DNA from: an uncultured Bifidobacteriaceae bacterium
GTDB taxonomy: Bacteria > Actinomycetota > Acidimicrobiia > IMCC26256 > PALSA-555
Reading direction: 5' to 3'
Length of the DNA: 42,104 bases
NCBI GenBank assembly: GCA_964532485.1
Contig: CAZHKE010000006.1
Coordinates: 47,280 to 89,383 of the forward strand
In this document: positions 5,607-25,783 of the stretch, one piece after another
How the letters are laid out: each line of letters starts with the position of its first letter
Position numbering within the stretch: the stretch's first letter is position 1
The notes under the pieces: generated by a model
What the model was told of the DNA's origin: nothing
What the model saw: only the letters and a program-made list of their open reading frames with translations
Databases searched by the model: none
Translations under genes and position numbers: made by a program

Positions 5607-5630
5607 CTAATCCGTCTCGGGGGGTGTGTG

Positions 5631-9156: not shown

Positions 9157-9189
9157 ATGGCGACTCCTCTCGGGCCGACGATTCGTGGT

Positions 9190-10434
9190 CTACGTCGCGA
9201 GCTCGATCACAAGGGGGAGCTCGACGAGCCGACGAATCATGAGGCTCTTGTGGTGCTCCAGTCTGGTGTCGGTCTCCTCGATGGTGAAGGAGGAGGTACG
9301 GGTCAACAGGCGCTCGAACGTGATCCTCGCCTCGATGCGGGCGAGGGGAGCGCCCAGGCAGAGGTGGATGCCCCAGCCGAAGCCGACGTGTTGGCGCGCG
9401 TTGGGCCGGTCGAGATCGATGTCCTCCGGGCGCTCGAACGCGCCCGGATCTCGGTTCGCGGCAGGCCAGACGAGCACCGCGCGCGCCCCGGCCGGGATCG
9501 TCGTCCCACCGAGGATCGTGTCGCGGGTGGTCCGGCGGTAATGGCCCCGAAAGGGCGGGTCGATCCGGAGCGCCTCTTCGACGAACGTGGGGATCAGCGA
9601 CGGCTCGTCACGCAGGCGCTGCTGGAGGACAGGCTGCTCCGCCAGGATGCGGGCGCCCGTGCCGAGCAGGCTCGTCGTCGACTCGCCCCCGGCGGAGATG
9701 AGGGTCCCCAAGATGGCGAACACCTCGCCCTCGCTGAGCTCGCCGGCCTCTACGGCCTGCGCACAGGTTCCGATCACGGTCGAGGTGTTCGGCGTCGAGC
9801 TGGCTCGAGCGGCCAGGAAGGCGTCGAGCACGGGGCCGAACTCCGCCATCGCTGTGAGCAACGTCGGGCGCAGCTCCTCGGTGACGAAGCCGCCGATCGC
9901 CTCGACGGAGGAGTAGCCCTGCGCCTTGAGCGTGGGCGCGTGCTCGTCGGCGACGCCGAGCAGGCGGGTCACCATGAGCATCGGCAACGGCTCGGCGACG
10001 TCGGCCATCCACTCGAGGCGGCCGGCGGGCAGGAGTCGATCCAGCGCGTCGTCGACGAGCGCGCGGAACTCTGACTCCCGGGACGCCATCACGGCCGTGG
10101 TGAACAACGGGGTCAATATCTTGCGCTGTCGGGTGTGATCCGGGGGGTCCGCGGTCGCCAGCGCGCTGCCCATGTCGTCCATCTCGCCCGCGTTGCCCAG
10201 CACGTCGACCAGCTCGGCGGTTCCGTCCTCTGCCAGGTGCAGGAACTCGGTGCTGGAGCTCGAGTAGGTCTTGGTGTTCGCCACTACTTCGTGGATCAGG
10301 TCCATCCTCGTCACAAGGAATGCGTCGGTGCCAGGGACCTGGTGAACCGGATCGGTCTCCCGCAGCTGCGCGAAGTAGCTGTGAGGTTCTTCGACCGTTC
10401 TCGGATCGAAGAGCGGGTCGATCGTGGTCGCCAC
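9190..10434 (-). CDS. Cytochrome P450 (CYP144-like appearance)
   Basis: ADPPDH, SAGGEST, EEALR, FGWGIHLCLG; start reassigned to GTG 10434 behind GAGGAGAG. Confidence 0.92.
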   Translation of the reverse strand: MATTIDPLFDPRTVEEPHSYFAQLRETDPVHQVPGTDAFLVTRMDLIHEVVANTKTYSSSSTEFLHLAEDGTAELVDVLGNAGEMDDMGSALATADPPDHTRQRKILTPLFTTAVMASRESEFRALVDDALDRLLPAGRLEWMADVAEPLPMLMVTRLLGVADEHAPTLKAQGYSSVEAIGGFVTEELRPTLLTAMAEFGPVLDAFLAARASSTPNTSTVIGTCAQAVEAGELSEGEVFAILGTLISAGGESTTSLLGTGARILAEQPVLQQRLRDEPSLIPTFVEEALRIDPPFRGHYRRTTRDTILGGTTIPAGARAVLVWPAANRDPGAFERPEDIDLDRPNARQHVGFGWGIHLCLGAPLARIEARITFERLLTRTSSFTIEETDTRLEHHKSLMIRRLVELPLVIELAT

Positions 10435-10495
10435 ACGACTCTCCTCACCTCGCGCGGACGGAGGGGCGTGCAACCCATCGCACACGCCGCCCCAG

Positions 10496-10526
10496 CACCC
10501 TAATTTGAAACAGCATAGAAAAGCCA
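10496..10526 (+). promoter_or_regulatory. Conserved operator/promoter block, copy A
   Basis: CACCCTAATTTGAAACAGCATAGAAAAGCCA; 26/31 identical to the reverse complement of 15216-15246. Confidence 0.75.
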
Positions 10527-10547
10527 CAGGGGGGTCGACCAGAGTTG

Positions 10548-10566
10548 GTGACGAGGTATAGAAAAG
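10548..10566 (+). promoter_or_regulatory. Degenerate second operator copy B
   Basis: GTGACGAGGTATAGAAAAG matches the TTGA-N6-ATAGAAAAG core with the same spacing. Confidence 0.55.
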
Positions 10567-10594
10567 GACGGGTCGAGCGTCCGAGGAGGCGAGC

Positions 10595-11758
10595 GTGGCA
10601 GAAGAGCCCGGGCTGCGGTACGTCGACTCGGACGGGCACATCCTCGAGCATCCAACCGGGATGTTGGACTACGCCGAGGCGGAGTACCGCGACCGCATCT
10701 GGCACATCGAGACCGCCGAGGACGGCGAGGAGACGGTCGTCTTCAACGGCACCCGGACGCCGGCGAACCTCCACGCGGCGGCCGGGACGGCCGGGATGAG
10801 CGACGAGGATCGGGCCAGGGCGTTCCGCGGGGAGATGCGGTACACCGAGGTGCGTCCAGCGGCCTACAACGCCAAGGCTCGTCTGCAGGACATGGACCAG
10901 GACGGCATCGACCTGGCGGTCCTGTACCCGACGATGCTGCTGGCGCTCCAGAGCATCACCGACGTTCCCTTCACGGTCGCCCAGGCGCGTGCGTACAACG
11001 GTTGGGCTTCCGATCACACCCTGGAGGGTGAGGGTCGAATCTTCGCCGCGGGTGCGGTTCCCGCGATGCACGCGCCGGAGGATGTGCAGGGTGTCGCCGA
11101 TGAGATCCGGCGGGTCGCGACCCTGCCCGGGATGGTGTCGGTCTTCATGCGTCCGAACCCCGCGGTCGACTGGCGACCGCTCAACGACGCGGTGTACGAC
11201 CCGATCTGGCAGGCCGCCGAGGAAACGGGGTTGCCGATCGCCATGCATCCGTTCCTGGCGCCGGACCTGCCAGGAGCGTCGCTCGGGCTGCGGATCGGTG
11301 ACAAGGGGCTGTTGTTCAGCCAGGCGCTGGCCAACCCCGTCGACGTGATGGCGGCGATCATGTGGACGACCGCCGGCGGGGTGTGCGAGCGATTCCCGGG
11401 CTGCAGGTTGATCTTCCTCGAGGCCAACGGCGGCTGGATCGTCCCGTGGCTGGAGCGGCTCGACCACCACGTGGACAAGTTCCAGTGGGAGGTGGGGGAC
11501 CTGAAGCTCTCCCCGTCGGAGTACTTCCGTCGACAGTGCTGGATCAGCTTCGACCCCGACGAGTCCATGCTGGCTTTCACCGCGCACTCGCCGCTGGTCG
11601 GCGCGGAGCGCATCATCTGGGCGTCGGACTACCCGCACCCCGACGCCAAGTTCCCGGGCGTCACCGATGAGCTGACCGAAGCCCTCGAGGGCTTGACCCT
11701 CGAGCAACAGCAGGCCATCACCTCCGAGAGCGCCATCGCCCTCTACCGCATCGGTTGA
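10595..11758 (+). CDS. Amidohydrolase family protein (Amidohydro_2)
   Basis: DSDGHILE, AMHPF, LEANGGW, WASDYPHPD; GAGGAGG RBS. Confidence 0.9.
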   Translation: MAEEPGLRYVDSDGHILEHPTGMLDYAEAEYRDRIWHIETAEDGEETVVFNGTRTPANLHAAAGTAGMSDEDRARAFRGEMRYTEVRPAAYNAKARLQDMDQDGIDLAVLYPTMLLALQSITDVPFTVAQARAYNGWASDHTLEGEGRIFAAGAVPAMHAPEDVQGVADEIRRVATLPGMVSVFMRPNPAVDWRPLNDAVYDPIWQAAEETGLPIAMHPFLAPDLPGASLGLRIGDKGLLFSQALANPVDVMAAIMWTTAGGVCERFPGCRLIFLEANGGWIVPWLERLDHHVDKFQWEVGDLKLSPSEYFRRQCWISFDPDESMLAFTAHSPLVGAERIIWASDYPHPDAKFPGVTDELTEALEGLTLEQQQAITSESAIALYRIG

Positions 11759-12828
11759 TACTGCCCACTCGACGGGCGGCGCAGGATGCGACGGCCTACG
11801 ACCATGGGCAGGTCGAGGAACGTCTTGATCCCCGGTGCCGCCTCACACACCGGCGCGACCGCGTGCACCGCGTGCATGGTCGTGCCCAAGCAGGCCTGGT
11901 CGTTGTGGTCCTCACCGTGCACCCCGATCCTGGCCTCGAGCACCATCGACGGGCGCCCCTCGATGCTCACCTTCCACCCGCGACCGCTCGGCCAGTCTGG
12001 AGCGGCCTCGTCCGACAACCGAGTGATGTGCTCCACCGTGAGCGCCTCCCGACCCTCGACGACTGCCATGGCCGAGAACCGCATCGCAGCGACCGTCCCC
12101 ACCTCGATGCGGCCCGCGGCGACATCGAACGCCTCGTCGGTCACCCACACCTGGCGGTCGAAGGAGAGATCCTCGATCGTCGCCTCCAACCCGTCGGCGA
12201 CCAGCATCAGCGGAGCCACGAAGAACCCGCCGATCGTCGAAGCCTCACCCCACAGCACGTTCGGGTCGTCCGGCGCCCGACCGAAGCCCATGCCGTCGAA
12301 CAGGTTGAACGCATGGTCATACGTCGAGTAGTCGAGCAGCTCCTGCACGGTCAGCGACTCGATGTATCGGAAGATGCCTGACATCGTCAGTGGCAACACC
12401 TCTGACGCCCATCCTGGCTCGATGCCCGTGCCGTGGAACGAGGTCTTGCCCGCTGCGCACGCCTCCTCCAGCTGCTCCACGACCGCCGGACCCATGCTCG
12501 CCGGATAGATCAACGGGGTCTCGTCGGTCGAGACGACGTTCTTTCCCGATGCCAAGAGCGCACAGATGTCGTCGATCGCCGGCGCGGCGCCGTGCTCGCC
12601 CTGGGCCATGTACAGCACGCAGTCGGCGTCGAGCGCCAGGATCGCCCCGGGCTCGTTCGTCGCCGTCACGCCGATGGGCCCGATACCGCCGATCTCACCC
12701 GCGTCGCGACCCACTTGCTCGTCGCGGTAGACGAAGGCACCCACGACCTCCAGGTCGGGGTGATCCACGGCTGCCCTCAACGCGTGACGACCGATCACGC
12801 CGGAGCCCCACTGCACGACTCGAAGCAT
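11743..12828 (-). CDS. DapB-N/2,4-diaminopentanoate dehydrogenase-like (native amine dehydrogenase family) oxidoreductase, copy A
   Basis: RVVQWGSGVIG Rossmann motif, DADCVLY, GKNVVST, HGTGIEPG, VCEAAPGI..FLDLP. Confidence 0.85.
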   Translation of the reverse strand: MLRVVQWGSGVIGRHALRAAVDHPDLEVVGAFVYRDEQVGRDAGEIGGIGPIGVTATNEPGAILALDADCVLYMAQGEHGAAPAIDDICALLASGKNVVSTDETPLIYPASMGPAVVEQLEEACAAGKTSFHGTGIEPGWASEVLPLTMSGIFRYIESLTVQELLDYSTYDHAFNLFDGMGFGRAPDDPNVLWGEASTIGGFFVAPLMLVADGLEATIEDLSFDRQVWVTDEAFDVAAGRIEVGTVAAMRFSAMAVVEGREALTVEHITRLSDEAAPDWPSGRGWKVSIEGRPSMVLEARIGVHGEDHNDQACLGTTMHAVHAVAPVCEAAPGIKTFLDLPMVVGRRILRRPSSGQYQPMR

Positions 12829-12938
12829 GGCGCCGTTGCATCATCCCGAGGAGCCCGGTGCCTCGCGTTGCCGGGCCGTCATCGGCGAGCCGTGAAGCTC
12901 GTGTTCGGCGCTCGGCGATCGCGCGTCCACCGCTCTCC

Positions 12939-14216
12939 TCAGAACACCCCCACGCCGGCAGCCTCGTTGCGCTTGCGCCACTCCTCGCGGGACATGCGAG
13001 TGGTGTCGACGTCCTTCGCGAGGGCCCGCAGGGCACCTACGGTTGCGTCTTCCTTGGCGATGTGCTCGAACGGATCCCAGTCGTAGAACCTGCAGGCGTT
13101 CTCCCAGGTGATCTTGTTGATCTCTCCGTCGTCGGTGACCCCGGCGCCCTGGAGCTCCTTCCAGAGGAACTCTGGTGATTCGGGCCAGGTCGTGTCGGTG
13201 TGTGGGTAGTCGCACTCCCACGCGATGTTGTCGATGCCGATCCGGTGGCGCGCCTCGAGCCCCGACGGATCCGTGATGAAGCAAGCGAGGATGCTCCTGC
13301 GGAACACCTCCGACGGCCTCGTCGGGCCGAAGCCGAACTCGCTGTTCGTGATCCACTTCTGGTTGTCGTAGTGACGTTCGACTCGGTCCAGGTAGAAGGG
13401 GATCCAGCCGATCCCGCCCTCCGAGAGCGCGACCCTGAGGTCCGGGAAGGCACGCAGCGTCGGGCCGAAGAGCAGGTCCTGGGCGGTGACGACCGACACC
13501 TGGCACGCGATGACCATCAGGTGGTCGATCCCTGCCTCCGGAGGACGAGCGATGCACTCGAAGCCCGCCCCGATGTGGAGCGACAGGACCATGTTCTCGT
13601 CGCACAGCGCCTCGAGCATCGGGTCCCAGTGGCCCGACAGGAAGCTCGGGTATCCCTTGATGTGCGGCGTCTCGAGGAAGCTGATGCTCCTGCAGCCCTT
13701 CTTCCCGACGCGGTGCACCTCCTTCGCCGTCTCGTCGATGTCCCACATCGGAACCAGGCAGCAGGGGATGAAGCGACCCGGATACGCGGCACACCACTCG
13801 TCGATCACCCAGTCGTTGTACGACTGGAGCATGACGAGCCCGAGCTCCTTGTCGTCCGCCTCCGCGAACGTCCGGGCGTTCCAGCCCGCCATCGTCGGGA
13901 AGTTCATCGACGCGAGCACGCCGTTCGCGTTCATGTCGCGCACCCGCTCGTGGACGTCGAAGCAGCCGGGGCGCAGCTCGGTGTACGCACCGGCGGCGTA
14001 GCCCCACTCCTCGCTGGGCCAGCCGACGGTCGCGGACAGGCCGAAGGGGGTCGAGGTTGCCTCCCCTTGGAACACCCACTCATCGACGCCGAACTCGTTG
14101 CGAACGAGCTTCGGAGCCTGATCGGCCCACTTGGCGGGCACGTGGTTCTTCCACATGTCCGGCGGCTCGACCATGTGATCGTCGATGCTCACCATGATCA
14201 TGTCTTCCATCTGCAT
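12939..14216 (-). CDS. Amidohydrolase family protein (Amidohydro_2), paralog of 2137-3414
   Basis: MQMEDMIMVSIDDHMVEP, LHIGAG, SEGGIGW, WECDYPH; start reassigned to ATG 14216 behind GGGGAG. Confidence 0.9.
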   Translation of the reverse strand: MQMEDMIMVSIDDHMVEPPDMWKNHVPAKWADQAPKLVRNEFGVDEWVFQGEATSTPFGLSATVGWPSEEWGYAAGAYTELRPGCFDVHERVRDMNANGVLASMNFPTMAGWNARTFAEADDKELGLVMLQSYNDWVIDEWCAAYPGRFIPCCLVPMWDIDETAKEVHRVGKKGCRSISFLETPHIKGYPSFLSGHWDPMLEALCDENMVLSLHIGAGFECIARPPEAGIDHLMVIACQVSVVTAQDLLFGPTLRAFPDLRVALSEGGIGWIPFYLDRVERHYDNQKWITNSEFGFGPTRPSEVFRRSILACFITDPSGLEARHRIGIDNIAWECDYPHTDTTWPESPEFLWKELQGAGVTDDGEINKITWENACRFYDWDPFEHIAKEDATVGALRALAKDVDTTRMSREEWRKRNEAAGVGVF

Positions 14217-14290
14217 GGCAGGCTCCCCCTGGACGCGGCCCTTCCGAGCGAATTCCTTACGAAGATTAACATCGTCGGACACGTAGTGCG

Positions 14291-15193
14291 TCAGCCGCGG
14301 ACTCTGTTCTTCTGTGCGGGGACGACCGGCGGTGCTTCCTTCATGGCCGGCACGCCGTCCTCAGGGAGTGCGAGGGGTGGCCCGCCACCGTGAACCACCG
14401 ACCAGTGGCTGTGGTTCAGCTCGTGGAGCGTGAAGCACGCATTGAGCGAGTTGTAGAACCCCATGTTGTCGACCGTCTGGTTGACCGACTCCTTGACGAG
14501 CAGCGCCGCCATCGTCGGAACCGCGGCGACGCGACGAGCGAAGTCGAGGGTCATGTCGCCGAGCTGATCGGCCGGGAAGACCTTCGAGACCATGCCCATG
14601 GCGTGGGCCTCGTCGGCGGTGACCGAATCGCCGGTGAGCATGAGCTCCTTGGTCTTTCGGGGGCCGAACTCCCACGGGTGCGCGAAGTACTCCATCCCGC
14701 ACATGCCGAGGCGCGTGCCGACGACGTCGGCGAAGCGCGTGCCTTCGGCGGCGACGATGAGATCGCACGCCCACATCAGCATCAGCCCGGCGGAGTACAC
14801 GTCGCCGTGCACCTGCGCGATCGTGATCTTGCGGAGGTTCCGCCACCGCAACGTGTTCTGGAAGAAGTAGTGCCATTCCTGGAGCATCAGGCTCTCGGCG
14901 CCTTCCCGGGCGCCGCCATTGACCTTCCAGGTCGCGTGCTGGTTGGGGCCCGGCATGTACTCCTCCATCGAGACCTTCGACATGACGTCGTGTCCCGACG
15001 AGAACATCGGACCGGTTCCGCCCAAGATGACGACCCGTACGGCGTCGTCGGCCTCTGCGGCGAGGAACGCGTCGTTCAGCTCGACCAGCAGGCCGCGATT
15101 CTGCGCGTTGCGGGCGTCGGGTCGGTTGAGCATGATGCGCACGACGGCCCCGTCGTCGTGCTGCTCGACCAGCAGGTACTGATAGTCGGGCAT
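14291..15193 (-). CDS. echA13: Enoyl-CoA hydratase/crotonase family, EchA13-like
   Basis: LNRPDARNAQ, FSSGHD, LQEWHY...RWRNLRKITIAQVHG and FADVVGTRLGMCGMEYFAHPWEFGPRK resemble mycobacterial EchA13 as I recall it. Confidence 0.8.
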   Translation of the reverse strand: MPDYQYLLVEQHDDGAVVRIMLNRPDARNAQNRGLLVELNDAFLAAEADDAVRVVILGGTGPMFSSGHDVMSKVSMEEYMPGPNQHATWKVNGGAREGAESLMLQEWHYFFQNTLRWRNLRKITIAQVHGDVYSAGLMLMWACDLIVAAEGTRFADVVGTRLGMCGMEYFAHPWEFGPRKTKELMLTGDSVTADEAHAMGMVSKVFPADQLGDMTLDFARRVAAVPTMAALLVKESVNQTVDNMGFYNSLNACFTLHELNHSHWSVVHGGGPPLALPEDGVPAMKEAPPVVPAQKNRVRG

Positions 15194-15215
15194 GCTTCCC
15201 CCTGATCTCGGACGC

Positions 15216-15246
15216 TGGCTTTTCTATCATGCCTCAATTTAGGGTG
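15216..15246 (-). promoter_or_regulatory. Conserved operator/promoter block, copy C
   Basis: TGGCTTTTCTATCATGCCTCAATTTAGGGTG between divergent echA13-like and acyl-CoA dehydrogenase genes; includes a TAGGGT -10 candidate on the plus strand. Confidence 0.75.
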
Positions 15247-15284
15247 GCGACGCAGAGACGAGCGGCCGGCACGGGGGACGCGAG

Positions 15285-16409
15285 GTGGACGACGAGCTGA
15301 CCGACGAGCAGCGGTTGCTCCATGACACCGCGGTGCGATTCATCCAGAGCGAGCTCCCGCTCGCGGCGACCCGAGAGCTGCATGAGGACCCCCGCGGCTA
15401 CGACGAGAAGTGGTTGGCTCGTACCGCCGAGCTGGGCTGGTACTCGCTCCTCGTCGCGGAGGAGCACGGCGGCGGGAGCATCAGCGGTCATGGTCTGATC
15501 GACCTGGCGGTCGTGGCCGACACCATCGGTCGCTTCGTCCAACCGGGGCCGTTCATCTCCATGAACGTGGTCGGTGCCGCCGTCACTGCCGACGGGACCG
15601 CTGAGCAGCGCGCGGCCCTCCTTCCCGGCATGGTCGCGGGCGAGGTGGTGGCGACGTGGGCCCCGTTCGACTCCACGGGCAAGTGGGACGGCGGCCATGG
15701 ACTCACGGTCACCGCGGACGGCGACGAGATCGTCCTCCGAGGCACGAGGGGCTTCGTGCAGGACGCCCTGACATCCGACGTCCTGTGCGTCGTCGGAACC
15801 CTCGGCGGCGCGCCGGTCCAGGTCCTGGTGCCGACGCGCACTGCTGGTGTCGATGTCGAGCCGTTGACGTGCCTCGACCTGTCCCGACGCATGGGTGAGG
15901 TCACGTTCGACGCGCGCCTGCCGGCAGCCGCGCAGCTCGGTGGCGCGGGCGCCGACACCGAGGTCGCGCTCGAGCATCAGCTGCAGATCGCGGTCGTGCT
16001 CGCTTGCGCAGAGACCGTCGGCGCGCTCGACACGATGTTCGAGATGACCGTCGAGTACTCGAAGGGCCGCGTCGCCTTCGGGCGCCCGATCGGGTCGTTC
16101 CAGGCACTCAAGCACGTGATGGCGGACGTCGCGGTCTTTCTCGAGGGCTGCAAGGCCGTGGCCACGGAGAGCGCGCGGGTCGTCGATGCGGGCGGTGACG
16201 ACGCCGCGGAGGTGGTGTCGATGGCGGCGTCCTACATCGACGAGCGCGCCACCGAGATCGCGCAGCAGTGTCTGCAGATCCACGGTGGGATCGGCTTCAC
16301 CTGGGAGCACGACCTCCACCTCTTGATGCGACGAGCACGTTCGACCACTTCGTTGTGGTGCGACCCGGTGTGGCACCGCGAGCGGATCTGCGAGGTGCAC
16401 GCACTGTGA
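15285..16409 (+). CDS. Acyl-CoA dehydrogenase, partner subunit of a heteromeric pair
   Basis: LTDEQRLL, RVAFGRPIGSFQALKH, QIHGGIGFTWEHDLHL. Confidence 0.9.
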   Translation: MDDELTDEQRLLHDTAVRFIQSELPLAATRELHEDPRGYDEKWLARTAELGWYSLLVAEEHGGGSISGHGLIDLAVVADTIGRFVQPGPFISMNVVGAAVTADGTAEQRAALLPGMVAGEVVATWAPFDSTGKWDGGHGLTVTADGDEIVLRGTRGFVQDALTSDVLCVVGTLGGAPVQVLVPTRTAGVDVEPLTCLDLSRRMGEVTFDARLPAAAQLGGAGADTEVALEHQLQIAVVLACAETVGALDTMFEMTVEYSKGRVAFGRPIGSFQALKHVMADVAVFLEGCKAVATESARVVDAGGDDAAEVVSMAASYIDERATEIAQQCLQIHGGIGFTWEHDLHLLMRRARSTTSLWCDPVWHRERICEVHAL

Positions 16410-17671
16410 GCGAGATCGATGGTCTCGACGACTACCGCACCGAGATGCGCGCCTGGCTCGCCGCGAACCTGCCCGCCCGGGTCCCGGGCTCGTCGACGCT
16501 CGACGTCGACGGACTGACCCCCGAGCAGCTCGCCGACGGCCGTGCACAGCAGAAGCAGATGTACGACGCGGGCTACGTCGGCATCACCGTGCCGACGGAG
16601 TACGGCGGCCAGGGGCTGTCCGAGGCGCACCAGCGCGTCTGGATCGAAGAGTCGGCCGGCTACGCGGTGCCGTTGCCGGCGGGCGTGGCCTCGATGGTGA
16701 CCATGGGCGTGGTCCTGCCCACGCTGCTTGCAAACGCCACCGAGGAGCAGAAGCGGGCATGGATCCCGCGACTGCTCCGAGCCGAGGACATCTGGGTGCA
16801 GCTGCTCTCCGAGCCGGCCGCGGGTTCGGACCTCGCCGGCATCCTCACCCGGGCCACCCGCACAGGCGACACCTGGGTCCTCAACGGCACCAAGCTGTGG
16901 TCGTCGGGCGCGACGTACGCCGACTACGGGATCTGCCTGGCGCGCACCGACTGGGACGTGCCGAAGCATCGGGGCCTCACGTGGTTCAAGGTCCCTCTGC
17001 ACGACGAGCGGGTGACCGTCCGGCCGGTCCGCCAGGTCAACGGCAGCCTCGAGTTCTGCGAGGAGTTCCTCGACGACGTCGTCGTCGGTGACGACATGGT
17101 GATCGGCCCGGTCAACGGCGGGTGGGCCGTTGCCAACTCGATGCTGGTGTTCGAGCGCGGCGTCGGCCACATCGAGGGCCCGCGCGCGGGTGGCGCCACT
17201 TCGCAACGAGAGCTCGCTCCCGACCTCGTCGAGCTGGCGCGCCAGCGGGGTACCACGGGCAACGCCGCGGTGCGTCAGCTCATCGCCCGAGCTCATGCCG
17301 AAGACTGGGCCCACGAGCTGTTGACCCAACGCGTGACGGCACGGCTGACGAGCGGCAGCGCCAACCCCGCGTCCGCAGCGCTCGTCAAGCTGTCCATGGG
17401 CCTACGCAATCCCGAGCGCGCGATCGCAGCCGTGACCATCGCCGGGCGTCTTGCAGTCGCGTGGCGGGAGGCAGGCTCATCGGGCGAGCGCGCGGCAACC
17501 GGCTTCTTCTACGGCCGCCAGTTCGCGATCGCGGGTGGCAGCAACCAGATCCAGCGCAACGTCATCAGCGAACGGCTCCTCGGGCTGCCCCGCGAGCCGA
17601 GCGAAGACAAGGACAAGCCGTTCCGCGAGGTGCTTCGTGATGGCCAGGGCTGGGGCTCCGCGGATCGCTGA
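16406..17671 (+). CDS. Acyl-CoA dehydrogenase, probable catalytic subunit of a heteromeric pair
   Basis: GTGA overlap with the upstream stop; LSEPAAGSDLA, NGTKLWSS, EFCEEFLDDV, LVFER, IAGGSNQIQRN. Confidence 0.9.
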   Translation: MSEIDGLDDYRTEMRAWLAANLPARVPGSSTLDVDGLTPEQLADGRAQQKQMYDAGYVGITVPTEYGGQGLSEAHQRVWIEESAGYAVPLPAGVASMVTMGVVLPTLLANATEEQKRAWIPRLLRAEDIWVQLLSEPAAGSDLAGILTRATRTGDTWVLNGTKLWSSGATYADYGICLARTDWDVPKHRGLTWFKVPLHDERVTVRPVRQVNGSLEFCEEFLDDVVVGDDMVIGPVNGGWAVANSMLVFERGVGHIEGPRAGGATSQRELAPDLVELARQRGTTGNAAVRQLIARAHAEDWAHELLTQRVTARLTSGSANPASAALVKLSMGLRNPERAIAAVTIAGRLAVAWREAGSSGERAATGFFYGRQFAIAGGSNQIQRNVISERLLGLPREPSEDKDKPFREVLRDGQGWGSADR

Positions 17672-17688
17672 GCGTGGTGCGCGCCATT

Positions 17689-17717
17689 TTGAGGCATCGT
17701 TGAAAACTCGATAGTGT
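17689..17717 (+). promoter_or_regulatory. Sigma70-type promoter TTGAGG-N17-TAGTGT overlapped by operator copy D
   Basis: 17-nt spacer; the -10 ends 8 nt before ATG 17726 and there is no SD, suggesting a leaderless mRNA; 17689-17707 TTGAGGCATCGTTGAAAAC matches the operator core. Confidence 0.6.
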
Positions 17718-17725
17718 GCGCCGTC

Positions 17726-19192
17726 ATGGGCGAAGCCCGCATGCTCGTCGACGGCAAGCTCGTCGACGCCGAGGGTGGCGAGACCTTCGACAACGTCGAT
17801 CCGACGACCGAAGCCGTGCTCGGCCCGGTCGCCGACGGCTCGGCGGCCGACATGGCTGCCGCGATCGCCGCAGCACGATCCGCGTTCGACCACACGTCGT
17901 GGTCGACCGACAAGGCGCTGCGCAAGCGCTGCCTCGAGCAGCTCCAGGTCGCGATCGAGTCCGAGCAAGAGGAGCTGCGCCAGGAGCTCGTCGCCGAGGT
18001 CGGCTGCCCGATCGCGCTCACCTACGGCCCGCAGCTCGACGCACCGGTGAAGCGAGCGCTGAGCTGGCCGCGGCAGATGATCGATGAGTTCGAGTGGGAG
18101 CGCACGCTCCCGGCGGTTGACGCCCTCGGCTTCGGCATCCTGACCGCTCGTGAGGTGTGGAAGGAGCCCAAGGGCGTCATCGGGACCATCGTCCCGTGGA
18201 ACTTTCCCATCGAGCTCATCCTGACGAAGCTCGGACCGATCCTGGCGATGGGCAACACGTGCGTGTTGAAGCCGGCGCCGGACACGCCGTGGAACGCCAC
18301 CCGAGTGGGGCGTCTGATCGCCGAGTCGACCGAGATCCCCCCTGGCGTCGTCAACGTCGTCACTTCGTCCGACCACCTCGTCGGTGAGGTGATCACGACC
18401 TCGCCCGAGGTGGACATGGTGGCCTTCACCGGGTCGACCGCGACCGGCCGGCGGATCATGGAGGGCGCCTCGGCCACCGTCAAGGACGTCTTCCTCGAGC
18501 TGGGCGGCAAGTCCGCCAACATCGTGCTCGACGACGCCGATTTCGAGGCGTTCTTCGGCATGGCCGCGATGGCGTGCATGCACGGCGGCCAGGCGTGTGC
18601 GCAGGCGTCGCGCCTGCTCGTGCCCCGTCACCGGTACGATGAGGCAGTCGAGATCGCCAAGGCCAGCTTCGAGAGTTGGAGCTATGGCGACCCGAGGCAG
18701 TTCGAGAACCTCCAGGGCCCGCAGATCTCGAAGCGCCAGCAAGAGCGCGTGCTCGGCTACATCGACACGGGCAAGAGCGAAGGTGCACGCGTGGTCACCG
18801 GAGGCGGCATCCCGGCCCACCTCGACAAGGGCTTCTTCGTCGAGCCGACCCTCTTCGTGGACGTCACCAACGACATGACGATCGCCCGTGAGGAGATCTT
18901 CGGCCCGGTGCTGGCGATGATCCCTTTCGACGACGACGCCGACGCGGTGCGCATCGCGAACGACAGCCCCTACGGCCTCGCGGGGGGCGTCACCTCAGGC
19001 GACCTGGATCGCGCGAAGGCGGTCGCCCGGAAGGTGCGCACCGGGACGCTCAGCGTGAACGGCGGCATCTGGTACGACGCCGACGCCCCGTTCGGCGGCT
19101 ACAAGGGCTCGGGAATCGGCCGCCAATGTGGCATCGAGGGCCTGGAGATCTTCACCCAGACGAAGACCGTCGGATGGCCGGCCGAAGGCTGA
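17726..19192 (+). CDS. Aldehyde dehydrogenase (AldA/Rv0768-like)
   Basis: PWNFP, LKPAP, FTGS, LELGGKS, HGGQAC catalytic Cys, EEIFGP, PFGGYK. Confidence 0.93.
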   Translation: MGEARMLVDGKLVDAEGGETFDNVDPTTEAVLGPVADGSAADMAAAIAAARSAFDHTSWSTDKALRKRCLEQLQVAIESEQEELRQELVAEVGCPIALTYGPQLDAPVKRALSWPRQMIDEFEWERTLPAVDALGFGILTAREVWKEPKGVIGTIVPWNFPIELILTKLGPILAMGNTCVLKPAPDTPWNATRVGRLIAESTEIPPGVVNVVTSSDHLVGEVITTSPEVDMVAFTGSTATGRRIMEGASATVKDVFLELGGKSANIVLDDADFEAFFGMAAMACMHGGQACAQASRLLVPRHRYDEAVEIAKASFESWSYGDPRQFENLQGPQISKRQQERVLGYIDTGKSEGARVVTGGGIPAHLDKGFFVEPTLFVDVTNDMTIAREEIFGPVLAMIPFDDDADAVRIANDSPYGLAGGVTSGDLDRAKAVARKVRTGTLSVNGGIWYDADAPFGGYKGSGIGRQCGIEGLEIFTQTKTVGWPAEG

Positions 19193-19247
19193 TCGAACGC
19201 TCGGCGCGATCCCGCGTGCACCCGGTCTCGATCTGCACAGGAGGACG

Positions 19248-20774
<1,527 letters not shown>

Positions 20775-20783
20775 CCGCGAGCG

Positions 20784-21497
20784 TCAGTCGAGCTCGGTGT
20801 CGCCGAAGTAGGCGGCCTCGAGCCGTTCGGCCTTCCCCCGCAGCTCGTCGGCCGTACCGCGCAGCACGATGGACCCGCGGTTGAGCACCGCCGCGTGGTC
20901 GGCCACCTCGAGGGCGAGGGTGACGTGCTGCTCCACGAGGAGGATGGCACAGCCGTCCTCTGCCGCCGTCTGCTTCACGCGGTCGAACAGCCTCTCGACC
21001 ACGAGCGGGGCCAACCCCATGCTCATCTCGTCCACCAAGAGTGCCCGGGGCGCCTGGATCAGGGCACGGGCCATGGCGAGCATCTGCTGCTCGCCGCCCG
21101 ACAGCGCCCCTGCGCGAATGGACCACCGAGGCTCGAGGGCCGGAAACACGTCGAGCATCTCGCGTGGCGATCGGTGCCCCTTGCGGCGGGCGGCCTTGAG
21201 ATTCTCCTCGACCGTCAGCGTCGTGAACAGACTGCGGTTGTCCGGAACCAGGACGATCCCTGCCTTCGCCGCGAGGCTCGGGCGTCCTGACTTCAGGGGC
21301 TGGCCGTCGACGAACACGGCACCGTCCTGGAGCGGGAGGAAGCCTGCGAGCGTGAGGAGCAGCGTCGTCTTGCCCGCGCCGTTGGGGCCCAAGAGGGCTT
21401 GGATGGCGCCCGCGTCGATGCTGACGTCGACGTCGCGGAACGCCACCGTCCGGCCGCGACCGCCGGTGAGCCCGGAGCCCTCGAGGCGAGGAGTCAT
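20784..21497 (-). CDS. ABC transporter ATP-binding protein, LivF-like
   Basis: GPNGAGKT, LSGGEQQM, VDEMSMGLAP, LLVEQ; ATGA overlap with the upstream gene. Confidence 0.92.
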   Translation of the reverse strand: MTPRLEGSGLTGGRGRTVAFRDVDVSIDAGAIQALLGPNGAGKTTLLLTLAGFLPLQDGAVFVDGQPLKSGRPSLAAKAGIVLVPDNRSLFTTLTVEENLKAARRKGHRSPREMLDVFPALEPRWSIRAGALSGGEQQMLAMARALIQAPRALLVDEMSMGLAPLVVERLFDRVKQTAAEDGCAILLVEQHVTLALEVADHAAVLNRGSIVLRGTADELRGKAERLEAAYFGDTELD

Positions 21498-24247
21498 TCC
21501 GGCTCCGCCGCCGCGTCGTGGACGTGTCCGAGGTACGCGTCGGCGACGGCGCGGTTGGATCGGATCGAACCCGCGTCGCCCTCGGCGATGACACACCCGA
21601 AGTCGAGCACGTAGAGGTCATCGCAGACGTCGAACATGAGCGCGACGTCGTGGTCGACGAGCAGAACGCCCGTCCCCGTGGCGCTGATCGCACCGATCCG
21701 CTCGCCGAGCCAGGCGGTCTCGACGGAGTCCAAGCCAGCGGCAGGCTCGTCCAGCATGAGCGCCTTCGGGCCCGTCGCGCAGGCTCGGGCGATGGACAGG
21801 AGCTGGCGCTGACCCTGGCTCAGGCTTCCCGCGTCGCGAGCGCGAAGCTCCGCGATCCCCACGAGATCGAGCGCTTCGCCCACGATGTCGTGGCGCGACT
21901 CTTCGCGCGTGGCGAAGGCGGCGGCACGTACGTTCTCCTCGACGGTGAGGTCGTCGTAGAGCTCCAGCGACTGGAACGTGCGGGCCAGCCCGCGACGCAC
22001 TCGCTGGTGAGGGGGCAGGCCGTCGATGCGGCTGCCGTCCAGCACGACGGCCCCGGTGGCCTCGGTGAAGCCCGAGATGGCGTCGATCGCACTCGTCTTG
22101 CCGGCGCCGTTGGGGCCGATGAGGCCCACGATCCCGCCGGCAGGGATCCGCAGGGAGAGCTCGGCGACCGCGACGACGCCCTCGTAGTGGACCGTCAAGT
22201 GGTCCACCTCGAGGACGTCGGGCGTGCCCGGGGGCGGGGCATTGCGCGGCGTGGCTCGGGGCGAGGCGGACGTCAGGCGGCTCGTGCGGGAAGGGTCGGT
22301 CGGGGCGCCGTCACGCTTCCGGCGCCACGCGTCGAGCCGGTCCGCCAGCCGGTGGCCGATGCTGGCGAGCCCCTCGGGATTCTGGATGAGCGTCACGATC
22401 ACGGCGACACCGCTGATGATCGCGAACCACTCGCCGAGGTCGATCCACTGGTCGGCCAGGTAGAACACGACACCATCTGCTATCAGGACCCCGGCCAGCA
22501 GACCGCCGAACACCGAGGTGACGCCGGCGAGGTACGCAGTAGAGAGGATGGTCAAGCCCCCGAGGGCGGTGAAGCTGACCCAGGTGACGGTGCCGAGGCG
22601 GTAGGCGAGGAGACTGCCCCCGAGCCCGGCGATGAACGAGGCGAGACCGAAGCTGACGACCTTGACGAAGGTCACGTTGATGCCGATGCCGGCCGCCGAA
22701 CGCTCGTTGGCCCGCACCGCCAGCATTGCTGACCCGAGGGATCCGGTCCGCAGCCGGGCCACACCGAAGGCGACGAGCGCGCAGACCAGGAGGCACAAGA
22801 AGCCGAACGGCAGCCGCGGAAACTCCGTACCGAGGCCGACGCCGAGGTCGAGACCCAAGAGCGTCGGCTGGGTGACCCGGGCACCGGAGGCGTCGATGTA
22901 GTCCGTGTTGCGGAACCAGACCGCTTCCAGGCCGAACGCGAGGGCGAGGGTCACGACGCCAAGCGTCAGGCCTCGCAGCCGCAACGCAGGGAGGCCCACG
23001 AGCACGCCGATCGCCGTTGCCGCGAGCGCAGCGAGCAACGGGGCGATGGGGAACGGCACGCCCCAGCTCTCGGTGAGAAAGGTGAGGACGAACGCGCTGA
23101 CGCCCGCGATGGCCAGCTGCGCCAGGGACACCTGCCCGGCGTAGCCCGTGACGACGACCAGCGAGAGTGCGATCACCGCGCCGATCAGGGTCGTGATGAC
23201 CGCCAGCCGGGCCGAGCCGCTGGTGAGGACGAGGGCCCCGGATCCGACGGCGAGTCCCACGACCATCGCGGTCGCGATCGACCGGGGTCGGGGCGCCCTG
23301 CCGAGCGGCGTCCGCAGCAGCGCGCCGCGCTCGGGGACGGCGCGGCCGGTCACGAGGAGTGCGATGAGCATCACGACGAGCGGGACCATGTCACCGACGC
23401 CGGCCTGCGGAATCCACGAGTGGAGCCCTGACAGGTAGACGAGCCAGGCCTGGACCATCCCGATGAGGATCCCGGCCAGGACGCTCGGCACGAGGTACTG
23501 GAACCTGCCGACGATGGCGGCGGCGAGGGCAGGTACGACGAACAGCGTGTAGGAGGCCGGTGTCACGGGGGCCAGCGGAGCGATGAGGATGCCGGCGATG
23601 CCGGTGACGGCACCGCTGACGATCCAGTTCAAGAGAGCGATCCGATCGGGCGAGATGCCGCTCACGTACGCGCCCATCTGGGACTCCGCGGTGGCTCGGG
23701 TGTGGAGGCCGAACGGAGTCCATCGGTAGAGCGCGGTGATCGCCAACGTGAGCACGACCACTGTGGCGGCGAGGTAGAACCGGTCCGACAGCAGCGCCAG
23801 GTCTCCGAACGTCCACCGTTCGGACGGGTAGATCGCGGTCACGCTCACCGGAGTCGTGCCGAGCCGGTTCGACATCAGCGACTGCAGGACGACGAGCACG
23901 CCGAGCGAGGCCACGGCACGAGCGAGCGGAGGGGCGTTCCTGAGCGGGCGGAAGACGACGACGTACAACAGCGCGCCAAGGAGCGCGGAGATCGCCAAGG
24001 TCAGCAGCAGCGCCGGGGCGGGGGCGACCTCGCCGGGGAGGTCCACGGTCGTCGGCAGTCCGGGAACGATCAGCAGGAGCTTGCCGTCGCGGAGGAACGC
24101 GTACGTGTACGCCGCGTACAGGGCTTGGGCCCCCGTGGCGAAGTTGATGACCCCCGACGCCCGGTACGTCAGAACGAGCGCGAGCGCCAGCGCCGCGTAG
24201 GTTCCTCCGTTGCCGAGTCCGAGGAGTGACGACGCGAAATGATCCAC
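21494..24247 (-). CDS. Fused Liv-type ABC permease-permease-ATPase (LivH-LivM-LivG-like)
   Basis: SGVINFA (LivH-like), GYAGQVSLAQ and PALRLRG (LivM-like), GPNGAGKT...LARTFQ...LDEPAAGL (LivG-like). Confidence 0.9.
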   Translation of the reverse strand: MDHFASSLLGLGNGGTYAALALALVLTYRASGVINFATGAQALYAAYTYAFLRDGKLLLIVPGLPTTVDLPGEVAPAPALLLTLAISALLGALLYVVVFRPLRNAPPLARAVASLGVLVVLQSLMSNRLGTTPVSVTAIYPSERWTFGDLALLSDRFYLAATVVVLTLAITALYRWTPFGLHTRATAESQMGAYVSGISPDRIALLNWIVSGAVTGIAGILIAPLAPVTPASYTLFVVPALAAAIVGRFQYLVPSVLAGILIGMVQAWLVYLSGLHSWIPQAGVGDMVPLVVMLIALLVTGRAVPERGALLRTPLGRAPRPRSIATAMVVGLAVGSGALVLTSGSARLAVITTLIGAVIALSLVVVTGYAGQVSLAQLAIAGVSAFVLTFLTESWGVPFPIAPLLAALAATAIGVLVGLPALRLRGLTLGVVTLALAFGLEAVWFRNTDYIDASGARVTQPTLLGLDLGVGLGTEFPRLPFGFLCLLVCALVAFGVARLRTGSLGSAMLAVRANERSAAGIGINVTFVKVVSFGLASFIAGLGGSLLAYRLGTVTWVSFTALGGLTILSTAYLAGVTSVFGGLLAGVLIADGVVFYLADQWIDLGEWFAIISGVAVIVTLIQNPEGLASIGHRLADRLDAWRRKRDGAPTDPSRTSRLTSASPRATPRNAPPPGTPDVLEVDHLTVHYEGVVAVAELSLRIPAGGIVGLIGPNGAGKTSAIDAISGFTEATGAVVLDGSRIDGLPPHQRVRRGLARTFQSLELYDDLTVEENVRAAAFATREESRHDIVGEALDLVGIAELRARDAGSLSQGQRQLLSIARACATGPKALMLDEPAAGLDSVETAWLGERIGAISATGTGVLLVDHDVALMFDVCDDLYVLDFGCVIAEGDAGSIRSNRAVADAYLGHVHDAAAEPE

Positions 24248-24308
24248 CGACCGACCCGCCGCTCTCGGGCTACGCCACTGCTAGTGATCTCGTGCCAGGT
24301 GATCTCGC

Positions 24309-25580
24309 CTAGCTCGCAGCCGGGTCCTCCTCACCCAGCGTCTTGAACGTCGTGATGTTCCCTTCGTCGTCGAGAGTCGTGTACAGCACCTCGTTCGCCG
24401 CACAGATGGCCCGCCCGGTCGGGTCGGCCTTGCCGTTGCAGCGGAAGTGCTGCCCGCCCGTACCGGGCATCACGCTGTCCGGCATCGACTTGATCGCCTT
24501 GGTGACGCTCGCGGGGTTCACCGCGCCCTCTACGCCGTTCGCCGCGATGGCGAACGACGAGGCCACGATGAATGCTACGAGGCCGTTGTTGGCCTCAGGG
24601 TCGGCTCCCGACTCCCCGTACTCGTCGAGCACGGCGAGGTACTGCACGACCGATGGGTTCGACTTGTCAGCGAACGGCGTCGTCGCGCCGACGGTGACTC
24701 CTTCGAGGAAGTCTCCGGGTACCGCGTTCCTCGTCACATCGGTGATGCACTCCTGGATCGCGACCACCTCACCCTTGAAGCCTGCGGTCCGCAAACCGTT
24801 GAGCGCGGCGGCGCAGAACGAGTCGTTGCCGACGATGTTCACCACGCCCTTCGGGTTGTCCGACACGACCTGCTGCATCTGCGGCGTCATGTCGGCGGTG
24901 CCGGGCGGCACCTCGACGATCTCCAGCTTGCGCCCCTGCGCCTCGATGCGGCTCCGGGCGGCCTCGACCGCGTCGACCGCGGCAGGGACACCGATGACGA
25001 CGGCAGTGACGGTCTTGGCGCCGTTCTCCTTGGCGATGCCCGCAGGCAAGTCGCCCAGGAGGCCGTTCGGGTTGGTGAGAGCGAACGTCCTCTTGTCGTT
25101 CAGCAGGTCCTCCTCGGTGATGCCGTAGAACATCACGGGGATCTTGGCCTCGTGCAGCACGGACCAGAGGCTCTCGGCCTGAGTCGAGTTGGAGACGAAG
25201 ACGCCGGCCACCCCGTCGCTGATCAATTGGTTGGCGCAGTCAGCAGCCTTGCCCGGGTCGGCGTCCGTCGTGCACACGATCAGGTCGATGGGGTGGCCGC
25301 CCAGCCCACCCATGTGCTCGTTCAGCCACTTCACCGTCGCTTCGGCGGCCTGGATGTCGATCTCGTTGCTGATGCCCTCACTCACGCCGTCCGCGATCAT
25401 CCCGATCTTCGCCGGTGTCCCGCTGGCCTTGTTCTTGGGCCCGAGCGGGTCCCCAGAGGACTCACTCGTCGACGGGTCGTCGCTCCCCGTGGCCGAGGCC
25501 GCGCTGGTGAATGCCGACGTCATCAGCAGCGCCGCGGTCAACGCGAGACCCGCGCTCCGTCGCGCCCACTTCGCAGTCAT
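24309..25580 (-). CDS. ABC substrate-binding protein, type I (LivJ/K-like)
   Basis: Signal peptide MTAKWARRSAGLALTAALL..ASA; NEHMGGLGGHPIDLIVC, DPGKAADCANQL, DMTPQ; lies upstream of the Liv permease. Confidence 0.88.
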   Translation of the reverse strand: MTAKWARRSAGLALTAALLMTSAFTSAASATGSDDPSTSESSGDPLGPKNKASGTPAKIGMIADGVSEGISNEIDIQAAEATVKWLNEHMGGLGGHPIDLIVCTTDADPGKAADCANQLISDGVAGVFVSNSTQAESLWSVLHEAKIPVMFYGITEEDLLNDKRTFALTNPNGLLGDLPAGIAKENGAKTVTAVVIGVPAAVDAVEAARSRIEAQGRKLEIVEVPPGTADMTPQMQQVVSDNPKGVVNIVGNDSFCAAALNGLRTAGFKGEVVAIQECITDVTRNAVPGDFLEGVTVGATTPFADKSNPSVVQYLAVLDEYGESGADPEANNGLVAFIVASSFAIAANGVEGAVNPASVTKAIKSMPDSVMPGTGGQHFRCNGKADPTGRAICAANEVLYTTLDDEGNITTFKTLGEEDPAAS

Positions 25581-25630
25581 CCTCGTTCCCCCCTGATGAT
25601 CGAAATGTTGACGATGAATCAAACGCCGCG

Positions 25631-25660
25631 CACGCTAGTTGACGCAACATAGAAAAGTCA
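25631..25660 (+). promoter_or_regulatory. Conserved operator/promoter block, copy E
   Basis: CACGCTAGTTGACGCAACATAGAAAAGTCA in the binding-protein/TetR divergent region; one base shorter than copies A and C. Confidence 0.7.
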
Positions 25661-25783
25661 CGCCCCCCAGGGCGGGGCCGGGACTCGAGAGGGCTGCCCA
25701 CGGCTCTCGGTTCCCCGTCCCCCGACCGACGAGTCAGTAGGTTGAAGGACAGTGATGCCAGTCAAGAGAATGCGCTGAGGAGC

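Follow-up and report, generated by a model that had tools for sequence, protein, structure and literature searches.

A non-palindromic 19-base motif at promoter candidates of a catabolic gene block, a possible repressor operator

The window analysed here, a stretch of 42,104 nucleotides, contains a contiguous block of about 18 kb (7999-26440) that carries all the motif sites described below and comprises six candidate operons. Its enzymes are a P450, three amidohydrolase_2 proteins, an enoyl-CoA hydratase, a DAP_DH_C-like oxidoreductase, an acyl-CoA dehydrogenase pair and two aldehyde dehydrogenases. The gene content of the block is as follows:

7999..10434, minus strand: putative target operon, P450 (9190-10434) and amidohydrolase_2 (7999-9156)
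10595..11758, plus strand: putative target, amidohydrolase_2
11743..15193, minus strand: putative target operon, enoyl-CoA hydratase, amidohydrolase_2 and DAP_DH_C-like oxidoreductase
15285..17671, plus strand: putative target operon, two adjacent acyl-CoA dehydrogenase genes
17726..20774, plus strand: putative target operon, two aldehyde dehydrogenase genes
20784..25580, minus strand: putative target operon, branched-chain-type ABC importer
25784..26440, plus strand: single-domain TetR-family regulator, candidate binder, matching TetR_N (E 1.9e-12) and TetR_C_1

The P450 and amidohydrolase_2 genes were assigned to one predicted operon because they share a strand and are separated by only 33 bases. 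The importer consists of a substrate-binding protein, a fused permease-permease-ATPase and a second ATPase, and the acyl-CoA dehydrogenase pair resembles IpdE2-type enzymes with a score below the family cut-off. Such islands and enzyme genes are massively paralogous in the lineage of this genome. The source bacterium is uncultured and high-GC, and occurs in salt-marsh metagenomes; no sequencing run recorded as RNA was found to contain the stretch. The TetR-family protein (218 aa, one TetR_N stretch, alternative start at GTG 25808) is encoded by the only regulator gene in the window, as the first-pass annotation had stated; among 32 TetR_N matches in the genome, it is the only one on its contig.

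Five sites, whose positions and sequences agree with those given by the first-pass annotation, match the motif TTGA-NN-CA-NN-ATAGAAAAG: three exactly and two with three mismatches. All five lie in gaps between Pfam-supported genes, confirming their intergenic placement. The sites and the −10 candidates around them are:

10505..10523, plus strand: site 1a, exact copy TTGAAACAGCATAGAAAAG, between the P450 (minus) and amidohydrolase (plus) genes
10548..10566, plus strand: site 1b, three mismatches with ATAGAAAAG intact, in the same orientation as site 1a and 43 bases from it
15219..15237, minus strand: site 2, exact copy, between the enoyl-CoA hydratase (minus) and acyl-CoA dehydrogenase (plus) genes
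17689..17707, plus strand: degenerate site with three mismatches, sharing the 9-mer TTGAGGCAT with site 2
25639..25657, plus strand: site 3, exact copy, between the substrate-binding protein (minus) and TetR (plus) genes
10497..10502, minus strand: TAGGGT −10 candidate towards the P450 gene, 2 bases from site 1a
10501-10506, plus strand: TAATTT candidate, overlapping TAGGGT at 10497..10502
15240..15245, plus strand: TAGGGT −10 candidate towards the acyl-CoA dehydrogenase gene, 2 bases from site 2
15236-15241, minus strand: TAAATT candidate, overlapping TAGGGT at 15240..15245
17712..17717, plus strand: TAGTGT −10 candidate of the aldehyde dehydrogenase gene, ending 8 bases before the ATG at 17726
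25632..25637, minus strand: TAGCGT −10 candidate towards the substrate-binding protein gene, 1 base from site 3

With up to three mismatches allowed, the window yielded these five matches; when its sequence was shuffled 100 times the mean was 0.05, and no shuffle (0/100) reached five. Across the draft genome (3,404,724 bases, 70.6% GC), only the three exact copies in the window were found, against 6.5e-5 expected from composition, and the four genomic occurrences of ATAGAAAAG likewise all fall in this stretch. At up to three mismatches the genome holds six matches, five of them in the window, versus 3.3 expected and three for the reversed pattern; because of this genome-wide count, the 3-mismatch copies are convincing solely by their position. 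In a genome-wide weight-matrix scan, the five sites scored at least 26.8 and the next best match 15.4.

The 15 specified positions are the same in all three exact copies. Of 12 pairwise comparisons at the four N positions only 2 show agreement, and the flanks differ. Sites 1a and 2 lie in the 31-base blocks at 10496 and 15216, which are identical at 26 of 31 bases, as had been reported, and the genes served by the exact sites (P450, acyl-CoA dehydrogenase and binding protein) lack mutual homology. Judged by sequence, constancy of the 15 positions amid variable N positions and flanks, next to non-homologous genes, points to selection on the motif and not to recent copying.

No dyad symmetry was found in the motif: at the best centre in any of the five sites, 6–7 pairs out of 12 are complementary. 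On the opposite strand the motif becomes CTTTTCTAT-N2-TG-N2-TCAA, with two 4-base blocks whose centres are 10 bases apart and a TG midway. The best-conserved half is TTTCTAT, and the TCAA half, N6 away, is kept in all three exact copies. The motif can also be read as a T(T/A)GA repeat, 11 bases apart. Two weaker half-sites proposed at 26473 and 36475 do share a TAGAAAA/TCGAAAA-like half with the motif, but have nothing else in common with it.

All three exact copies have one orientation relative to an adjacent TAGGGT or TAGCGT (TAGSGT) and are spaced 1–2 bases from it, in line with the −10 candidates that the first-pass annotation had placed beside the core at three sites. Each also contains a second, internal TANNNT (TATGCT, TATCAT and TATGTT), and such hexamers adjoin or overlap four of the five motif sites; the hexamer of site 1b, TATACC, is not usable as a −10. 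Neither hexamer at the exact sites has a recognisable −35 beside it, and a sigma-70-type match was found at none of the sites. Whichever candidate −10 hexamer serves, the exact copies sit inside a predicted core promoter. Site 1b ends 29 bases before the GTG at 10595, and the degenerate copy at 17689 lies, in the opposite orientation as described earlier, across a TTGAGG-17-TAGTGT promoter candidate, covering its −35 (TTGAGG) and spacer. Two terminator-like hairpins on the minus strand, adjoining sites 1b and 3, were rejected as terminators because no minus-strand gene ends there.

These arrangements bear on the earlier proposal of an autoregulated, orientation-independent repressor operator. 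Promoter overlap, taken there to fit a repressor, is supported at the level of −10-like hexamers. Orientation independence is overstated, as it comes down to the lone degenerate copy at 17689, the exact copies being fixed relative to TAGSGT. Nor does the geometry of site 3 establish the suggested autoregulation: within the 203-base gap between the TetR gene and the divergent binding-protein gene, it abuts the −10 candidate directed towards the ABC-transporter gene, and the only TANNNT directed towards the TetR gene (25738-25743) lies about 80 bases past it.

To look for conservation, we searched other genomes for the motif with at most one mismatch. Neither 60 relatives nor 263 other genomes of the order contained clustered or credible copies. 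Of the 263, 5 carry one or two matches each, six in all. Four of the six lie within long open frames of low-GC loci (34–47% GC). G080 and G212, both high-GC, account for the remaining two, each an isolated match that we attribute to chance; in G212 it overlaps a start codon located between two genes on the same strand. A scan of 185,579 GTDB species representatives for the motif followed by YCA, an extension that may hide variant sites, returned 28 lone matches, all in unrelated taxa and mostly low-GC, a count close to a rough chance estimate. The first-pass annotation had looked to conservation upstream of orthologs, and the collections searched held no close ortholog of the TetR: the best among the 60 relatives is 34% identical, and 400 genomes sampled from the class yielded none at E 1e-25. 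Metagenome contigs supplied homologs that are 49–51% identical. A weight-matrix scan of 156,589 bases of TetR-homolog loci gave nothing credible, its top hits starting at an ATG inside coding sequence. Upstream of the nearest relatives (33–51% identity), the candidate sites differ and are palindromic; the palindrome candidate of G004, which encodes the 34% homolog, occurs once in that genome. A likeness noted by eye between site 3 and the region upstream of a 49% ortholog (17 of 27 bases) was discarded as expected by chance on a rough estimate. Support for the motif from beyond its own genome is nil.

We compared the module with known systems. KstR and KstR2 control actinobacterial steroid catabolism regulons through palindromic boxes, in each case a TetR-family repressor acting on one repeated box at many divergent P450, acyl-CoA dehydrogenase, hydratase and CoA-transferase operons. 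The present block is similar in its TetR-family candidate, its divergent P450, acyl-CoA dehydrogenase and hydratase operons and its single repeated box, but its motif is non-palindromic. Using motif strings taken in part from the first-pass annotation, we found two matches to the KstR pattern in the window (12296 and 35913), both inside paralogous coding sequence, and none to the KstR2 pattern, in agreement with the earlier statement that the motif resembles neither box. The KstR model scored the TetR at 32.7 bits against a cut-off of 280.

A closer likeness in sequence is offered by the box of the TetR-family regulator AmtR of Corynebacterium glutamicum, given in PMC2723105 as tttCTATN6AtAGat/aA. 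According to the same paper, TetR and AmtR both read CTAT half-sites, which are inverted with a gap of 5 bases for TetR and 6 for AmtR, by means of Thr, Gln, Ser/Thr, Tyr, Tyr/Trp and His (PMC2723105). Written as CTTTTCTAT-N6-TCAA, the motif reproduces the left half of this box (TTTCTAT) and its N6 gap; both motifs may also lie on either strand in promoter regions, and the candidate binder here is likewise of the TetR family. The second half is the unrelated TCAA instead of ATAG, and therefore there is no palindrome. AmtR governs a genome-wide nitrogen regulon, whereas the present motif is confined to a 15-kb stretch. The protein itself, whose closest solved relatives are TetR class A/D, SimR and ActR, differs at the positions concerned. 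Alignment with TetR(A) 5mru gave T27->M47, R28->G48, Q38->A58, P39->A59, W43->H63 and H44->Y64, and the CTAT-reading positions (TetR 27, 38, 40, 42, 43 and 44) are occupied by M47, A58, A60, Y62, H63 and Y64. Relative to the readers named in PMC2723105, Gln, Thr/Ser and His are thus replaced, and only the Tyr (Y62) is retained.

Asymmetric operators had been called atypical for TetR proteins; they are indeed unusual, yet examples have been published (PMC4895335, PMC5500506, PMC11667970). Ms4022 recognises three motifs of 19 bp that are not palindromic and have a conserved 9-bp part (PMC4895335), and GdmRIII is another TetR-family protein with a non-palindromic site (PMC5500506). The present case resembles Ms4022 in pairing an actinobacterial TetR-family protein with asymmetric 19-bp sites that have a conserved 9-base end, several of them near the regulator's own gene (PMC4895335). 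It differs in sequence, the Ms4022 motif AANNAGCACNCCGTCGA being unrelated, and in that Ms4022 is an activator with sites mostly outside the −35 and hundreds of predicted targets (PMC4895335), whereas the five sites here include copies inside predicted core promoters. Mce3R of Mycobacterium tuberculosis has a double TetR fold with two non-identical HTHs about 32 Å apart and binds an asymmetric 25-bp operator (PMC11667970). In both systems, lipid/steroid-type catabolic and transport genes are preceded by an asymmetric operator, in the present case a putative one, whose two recognition points differ and are separated by about one helical turn. The Mce3R chain comprises two TetR domains, unlike the single-domain local TetR, and the only double TetR of the present genome is encoded on another contig, which has no motif copy.

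Taken together, we give roughly even odds to the motif being a cluster-specific repressor operator, probably of the TetR encoded at 25784. The 19-base motif would serve as the operator in a promoter-operator module controlling the block of about 18 kb (7999-26440), with the single-domain TetR-family protein (25784-26440) as the likeliest candidate repressor; promoters, binding protein, repression and ligand are all inferred. At the exact sites, the motif would fall within the core promoter of one of the two flanking genes, supplying its own TATNNT and ending 1–2 bases before TAGSGT. At sites 1a and 2 it would also cover the predicted start point of the back-to-back promoter on the other strand (TAATTT/TAAATT), and therefore a single bound protein would shut down both divergent operons. 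The repressor would be released by a pathway substrate or intermediate, which by analogy with KstR-type regulators could be an acyl-CoA. In favour of assigning the operator to this TetR, its gene adjoins a target gene and site 3 lies in their shared upstream region. From a homodimeric TetR one would expect recognition of two like half-sites; against the assignment, the operator is not an inverted repeat (at most 7 of 12 pairs at any centre in the five sites), its unlike TCAA half is fully conserved in the exact copies, and site 3 adjoins a promoter candidate directed away from the TetR gene. That a single-domain TetR homodimer reads an obligately asymmetric operator, in which a T-rich CTAT half of AmtR/tetO type and an unrelated but equally conserved TCAA half share the same pseudo-dyad spacing around a central TG, strikes us as unlikely. 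On that reading, operator asymmetry would fix the polarity of the dimer relative to the back-to-back −10s, and therefore the protein would lie over one core promoter and over its partner's start point.

The same asymmetry would suit a regulator encoded elsewhere, whether a protein whose two DNA-reading heads differ, a heterodimer or a binder of direct repeats. Two unlike conserved half-sites at a spacing of 10–11 bases are what a two-headed protein such as Mce3R reads (PMC11667970), the local TetR lacks the CTAT-reading residues, and the genome encodes one double TetR (C30:6366-7718, two TetR_N stretches). We nevertheless regard an outside regulator as rather unlikely: upstream of the double TetR gene lies a repeated AACTAAC of its own, motif copies are absent near that gene and everywhere beyond the window, and a regulon lying within 15 kb and adjoining a regulator gene, in a window with no other, is most simply served by that gene. 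The fixed geometry of the exact copies could instead reflect an alternative-sigma promoter, composed of CTTTTC, TATNNT, a CA start point and the nearby TAGSGTG. All three exact copies keep one orientation and spacing relative to the gene that they face, each has an internal TANNNT followed 5–7 bases later by a C-A step and then by the second TAGSGT, and neither hexamer has a recognisable −35. Identity at 15 positions over three promoters, however, is far tighter than usual for one sigma factor; the copy at 17689 is flipped and faces no gene, yet keeps 12 of the 15 positions and shares its 9-mer with site 2; the site 1b hexamer is unusable; and a three-promoter regulon within 15 kb, with none elsewhere in 3.4 Mb, would be odd. 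A sigma promoter is on balance improbable. Most improbable of all are functionless remnants of small duplications from island assembly, even though the likeness of sites 1a and 2 (26 of 31 bases) includes the flanks, sites 1b and 2 have in common a downstream 10-mer, AGCGTCCGAG, that occurs ten times in the genome, and the genome family is full of paralogs of these enzyme genes. Against such remnants, the exact copies differ solely at the four N positions and in their flanks, the neighbouring genes are not mutual paralogs, and every copy is at a promoter-like place.

Most likely, then, the motif is an ordinary kind of switch element whose sequence is unusually lopsided, and its interest is modest. 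It offers a testable handle on an uncultured bacterium, with five sites, one candidate regulator and six candidate operons. Should the TetR not bind, the block would be one more local regulon; should this single-domain protein bind the lopsided site, it would be a well-defined addition to the few asymmetric operators of the TetR family. If the homodimer did read an obligately asymmetric site, it would provide a directional operator in a family whose sites are considered symmetric except where the protein is duplicated, as in Mce3R. The releasing ligand, once found, would name the substrate of the island.

A search of the window for the 19-bp motif (TTGA-NN-CA-NN at one end; 15 specified and 4 N positions) at up to three mismatches recovered three exact copies, at 10505–10523 (+; site 1a), 15219–15237 (−; site 2) and 25639–25657 (+; site 3), and two copies with three mismatches, at 10548–10566 (+; site 1b) and 17689–17707 (+). 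These are precisely the five sites of the first-pass annotation, whose coordinates and sequences were correct on inspection of the window, as was the identity of 26 of 31 bases between the blocks at 10496 and 15216. Across 100 dinucleotide-preserving shuffles, matches averaged 0.05, and none of the shuffles reached five. The draft genome (3,404,724 bases, 135 contigs, 70.6% GC), in which the window is C6:47280–89383, contains three exact copies, all in the window, against 6.5e-5 expected from base composition. At up to three mismatches it contains six, five of them in the window, with 3.3 expected and three obtained with the pattern read backward, so the two degenerate copies are persuasive by location alone. 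When the five sites were turned into a weight matrix, they scored 26.8–33.7, the next best genome position reaching 15.4. ATAGAAAAG occurs four times genome-wide, always within the window, and TAGAAA 12 times; the window contains six of these, the extra two being the 26480 half-site and 3495.

Pfam and NCBIfam scans of the 44 candidate reading frames of the window outlined a predicted dense catabolic island, and each of the five sites is intergenic with respect to the genes found, as had been claimed.

Genes and motif copies of the island (genes from Pfam/NCBIfam scans, copies from the motif search)
7999–9156, −, amidohydrolase_2
9190–10434, −, P450
10505 and 10548, +, sites 1a and 1b
10595–11758, +, amidohydrolase_2
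11743–12828, −, DAP_DH_C-like oxidoreductase
12939–14282, −, amidohydrolase_2
14291–15193, −, enoyl-CoA hydratase
15219, −, site 2
15285–17671, +, two acyl-CoA dehydrogenases
17689, +, degenerate motif copy
17726–20774, +, two aldehyde dehydrogenases
20784–25580, −, branched-chain-type ABC importer (ATPase; fused permease-permease-ATPase; binding protein)
25639, +, site 3
25784–26440, +, TetR

Further P450, CoA-transferase III, SDR, ChsH2-like and thiolase-like genes flank these on both sides. The TetR gene carries the sole TetR_N match on contig C6 (32 in the genome) and the leftover gaps are too small for another regulator gene, which bears out its description as the only regulator in the window. 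An apparent 157-base gap proved to hold a gene for a 66-aa single-cluster ferredoxin (32617–32817; Fer4_15, E 3e-16), a likely redox partner of the island P450s. The 8.6 kb from 9190 to 17800 matched each of five related genomes (G001–G004 and G007) with at least 56 partial DNA hits; the lineage carries very many amidohydrolase_2, acyl-CoA dehydrogenase and P450 paralogs.

The three exact copies are identical at all 15 specified positions, their N positions agree in 2 of 12 pairwise comparisons, their flanks are dissimilar except for a CA two bases past the motif and a nearby hexamer, and the genes they face are mutually unrelated; such a pattern argues for particular bases being under selection and against recent copying. 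One to two bases past each copy lies a −10 candidate, TAGGGT toward the P450, TAGGGT toward an acyl-CoA dehydrogenase and TAGCGT toward the binding-protein gene, and a second TANNNT in the same direction sits inside the motif (TATGCT, TATCAT, TATGTT). All three are thus in one orientation relative to their target gene, which corrects the orientation independence first proposed; the degenerate 17689 copy is flipped. TANNNT is the actinobacterial −10; in this genome it is twice as concentrated in noncoding DNA as its reversed control word, an excess to which stop-codon avoidance contributes. At sites 1a and 2 an opposite-strand TANNNT (TAATTT, TAAATT) overlaps TAGGGT back to back; from it, transcription of the amidohydrolase and hydratase genes would begin within the motif. 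The flipped copy shows TTGAGG, 17 bases and TAGTGT, with 8 bases between the end of TAGTGT and the ATG at 17726, and looks like a leaderless-type promoter candidate. Site 1b has no usable hexamer alongside, and a sigma-70 consensus scan found no match at any site. Whichever hexamer serves as −10, the motif falls between about −36 and +10 of a candidate promoter at four of the five sites, the region where repressors act.

Several other elements accompany the sites. At sites 1b and 3 the AAAAG end is immediately followed by a GC-rich hairpin (10566–10582 and 25661–25678). On the minus strand both hairpins score like terminators, but no gene on that strand terminates there; on the plus strand they would lie 5′-most in the amidohydrolase and TetR leaders. 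The 10-mer AGCGTCCGAG, common to sites 1b and 2 (10576–10585, +; 15207–15216, −), lies a few bases past the motif, just ahead of the amidohydrolase and hydratase ribosome-binding sites; it occurs 10 times in the genome and could reflect either a leader element in common or shared ancestry. TTGACGATGAATCAA (25607–25621), a TTGA-N7-TCAA inverted repeat between the site 3 −10 candidate and the binding-protein start, would lie in the ABC operon leader. In the interval from the TetR stop to the following P450, GTTTTCTAACGCGAACAGGAAAC (26473–26495) forms an imperfect inverted repeat (GTTTTCT/AGGAAAC) with the motif's TAGAAAA half, 6 bases before TACAGT. Upstream of the P450 at 3530, GATTTCTACTGCCCTTAACATAAT (3487–3513) has a motif-like layout, TTTCTAC and TTAA before a −10-like TAACAT, but is one base shorter and scores too low for the weight matrix. 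The KstR-type pattern matches twice in the window (12296–12309 and 35913–35926), at equivalent places within the coding sequence of paralogous DAP_DH_C-like genes; these matches reflect a conserved peptide and were rejected as operators.

The motif is indeed non-palindromic: at all five sites, at best 6–7 of 12 pairs were complementary at any centre. Read on the opposite strand as CTTTTCTAT-NN-TG-NN-TCAA, its CTAT and TCAA blocks are separated by 10 bases centre to centre, the conserved TG step lying at the exact midpoint, a geometry that fits a dimer with two reading heads. In PMC2723105 the AmtR box is tttCTATN6AtAGat/aA, and AmtR and TetR both read CTAT half-sites, six and five bases apart, respectively. 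The motif's T-rich CTAT half is identical to the left side of this box, whereas the motif's second half, TCAA, shows full conservation and differs from ATAG. Among solved structures, those closest to the window's TetR are TetR class A/D, SimR and ActR (E 7e-10 to 1e-7); in alignment to TetR(A), the residues that this study names as CTAT-reading have changed (T27→M, Q38→A, T40→A, W43→H, H44→Y), Tyr42 alone being kept. These replacements and the conserved TCAA half disfavour a simple AmtR-like reading. Among TetR-family proteins, non-palindromic sites are described for Ms4022, with three 19-bp motifs sharing a conserved 9-bp part (PMC4895335) but unrelated in sequence to ours, and for GdmRIII (PMC5500506); DarR has an unlike, weakly bound half-site (PMC10636190), and Mce3R owes operator asymmetry to two TetR domains in one chain (PMC11667970).

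The genome's one double TetR (C30:6366–7718; two TetR_N stretches) has no motif copy nearby in the genome search and its own AACTAAC repeats upstream, two copies 75 bases apart. GTAACTAA also lies upstream of this Mce3R-like gene, with a P450 gene downstream; its three genome occurrences are on C30 (listed at 6280 and 6353–6361), at C63:7097 and at 5603–5610 of the window, the last in a 43-base gap between an SDR gene (4718–5584, −) and a DHDPS-like gene (5628, +), adjoining a TTACTC-T-GAGTAA palindrome. It may mark another small regulon whose site is asymmetric.

The genomes and contigs searched provided no external evidence in favour of the motif reading. At up to one mismatch, no credible copy was found in 60 relatives or among 263 other genomes of the order, where four of six matches lay in low-GC loci inside long open frames and the other two in high-GC genomes, one of them overlapping a start codon; with the motif extended by YCA, a scan of 185,579 species representatives yielded 28 isolated hits, in unrelated taxa. 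A look-up of sequencing runs that contain the stretch listed none of RNA. The TetR has no close ortholog in the collections searched: the best match in relatives had 34% identity, a search of 400 genomes of the class with a cut-off of E 1e-25 found none, and three metagenome contigs carried homologs of 49–51% identity. On two of these contigs and for the 34% homolog, the TetR gene is again divergent from a P450 gene, so the pair may be the older arrangement; upstream of these relatives lie different, palindromic candidates.

The motif is very probably a working cis-regulatory element. We favour, at a probability of about 0.5, an operator of a cluster-specific repressor, probably the local TetR, which would bind it within the candidate promoters and be released by a pathway compound. 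A local regulator is suggested by the confinement of the regulon to ~15 kb and one genome, and this TetR by its being the sole local regulator and by the position of site 3 in its upstream region. A regulator encoded elsewhere, with two unlike heads or a specificity for direct repeats, is a tentative second choice. A directional promoter read by an alternative sigma factor seems improbable, since the 17689 copy is flipped, the exact copies agree completely at 15 positions and 3.4 Mb contains no further copies; the pattern of differences among copies makes functionless duplication remnants very improbable.

The motif is real, sharply defined and genome-unique. Its wider significance is modest unless binding by the local single-domain TetR is shown; it is of an ordinary kind, a putative operator of a local catabolic regulon, and its unusual feature is its two unlike conserved halves.
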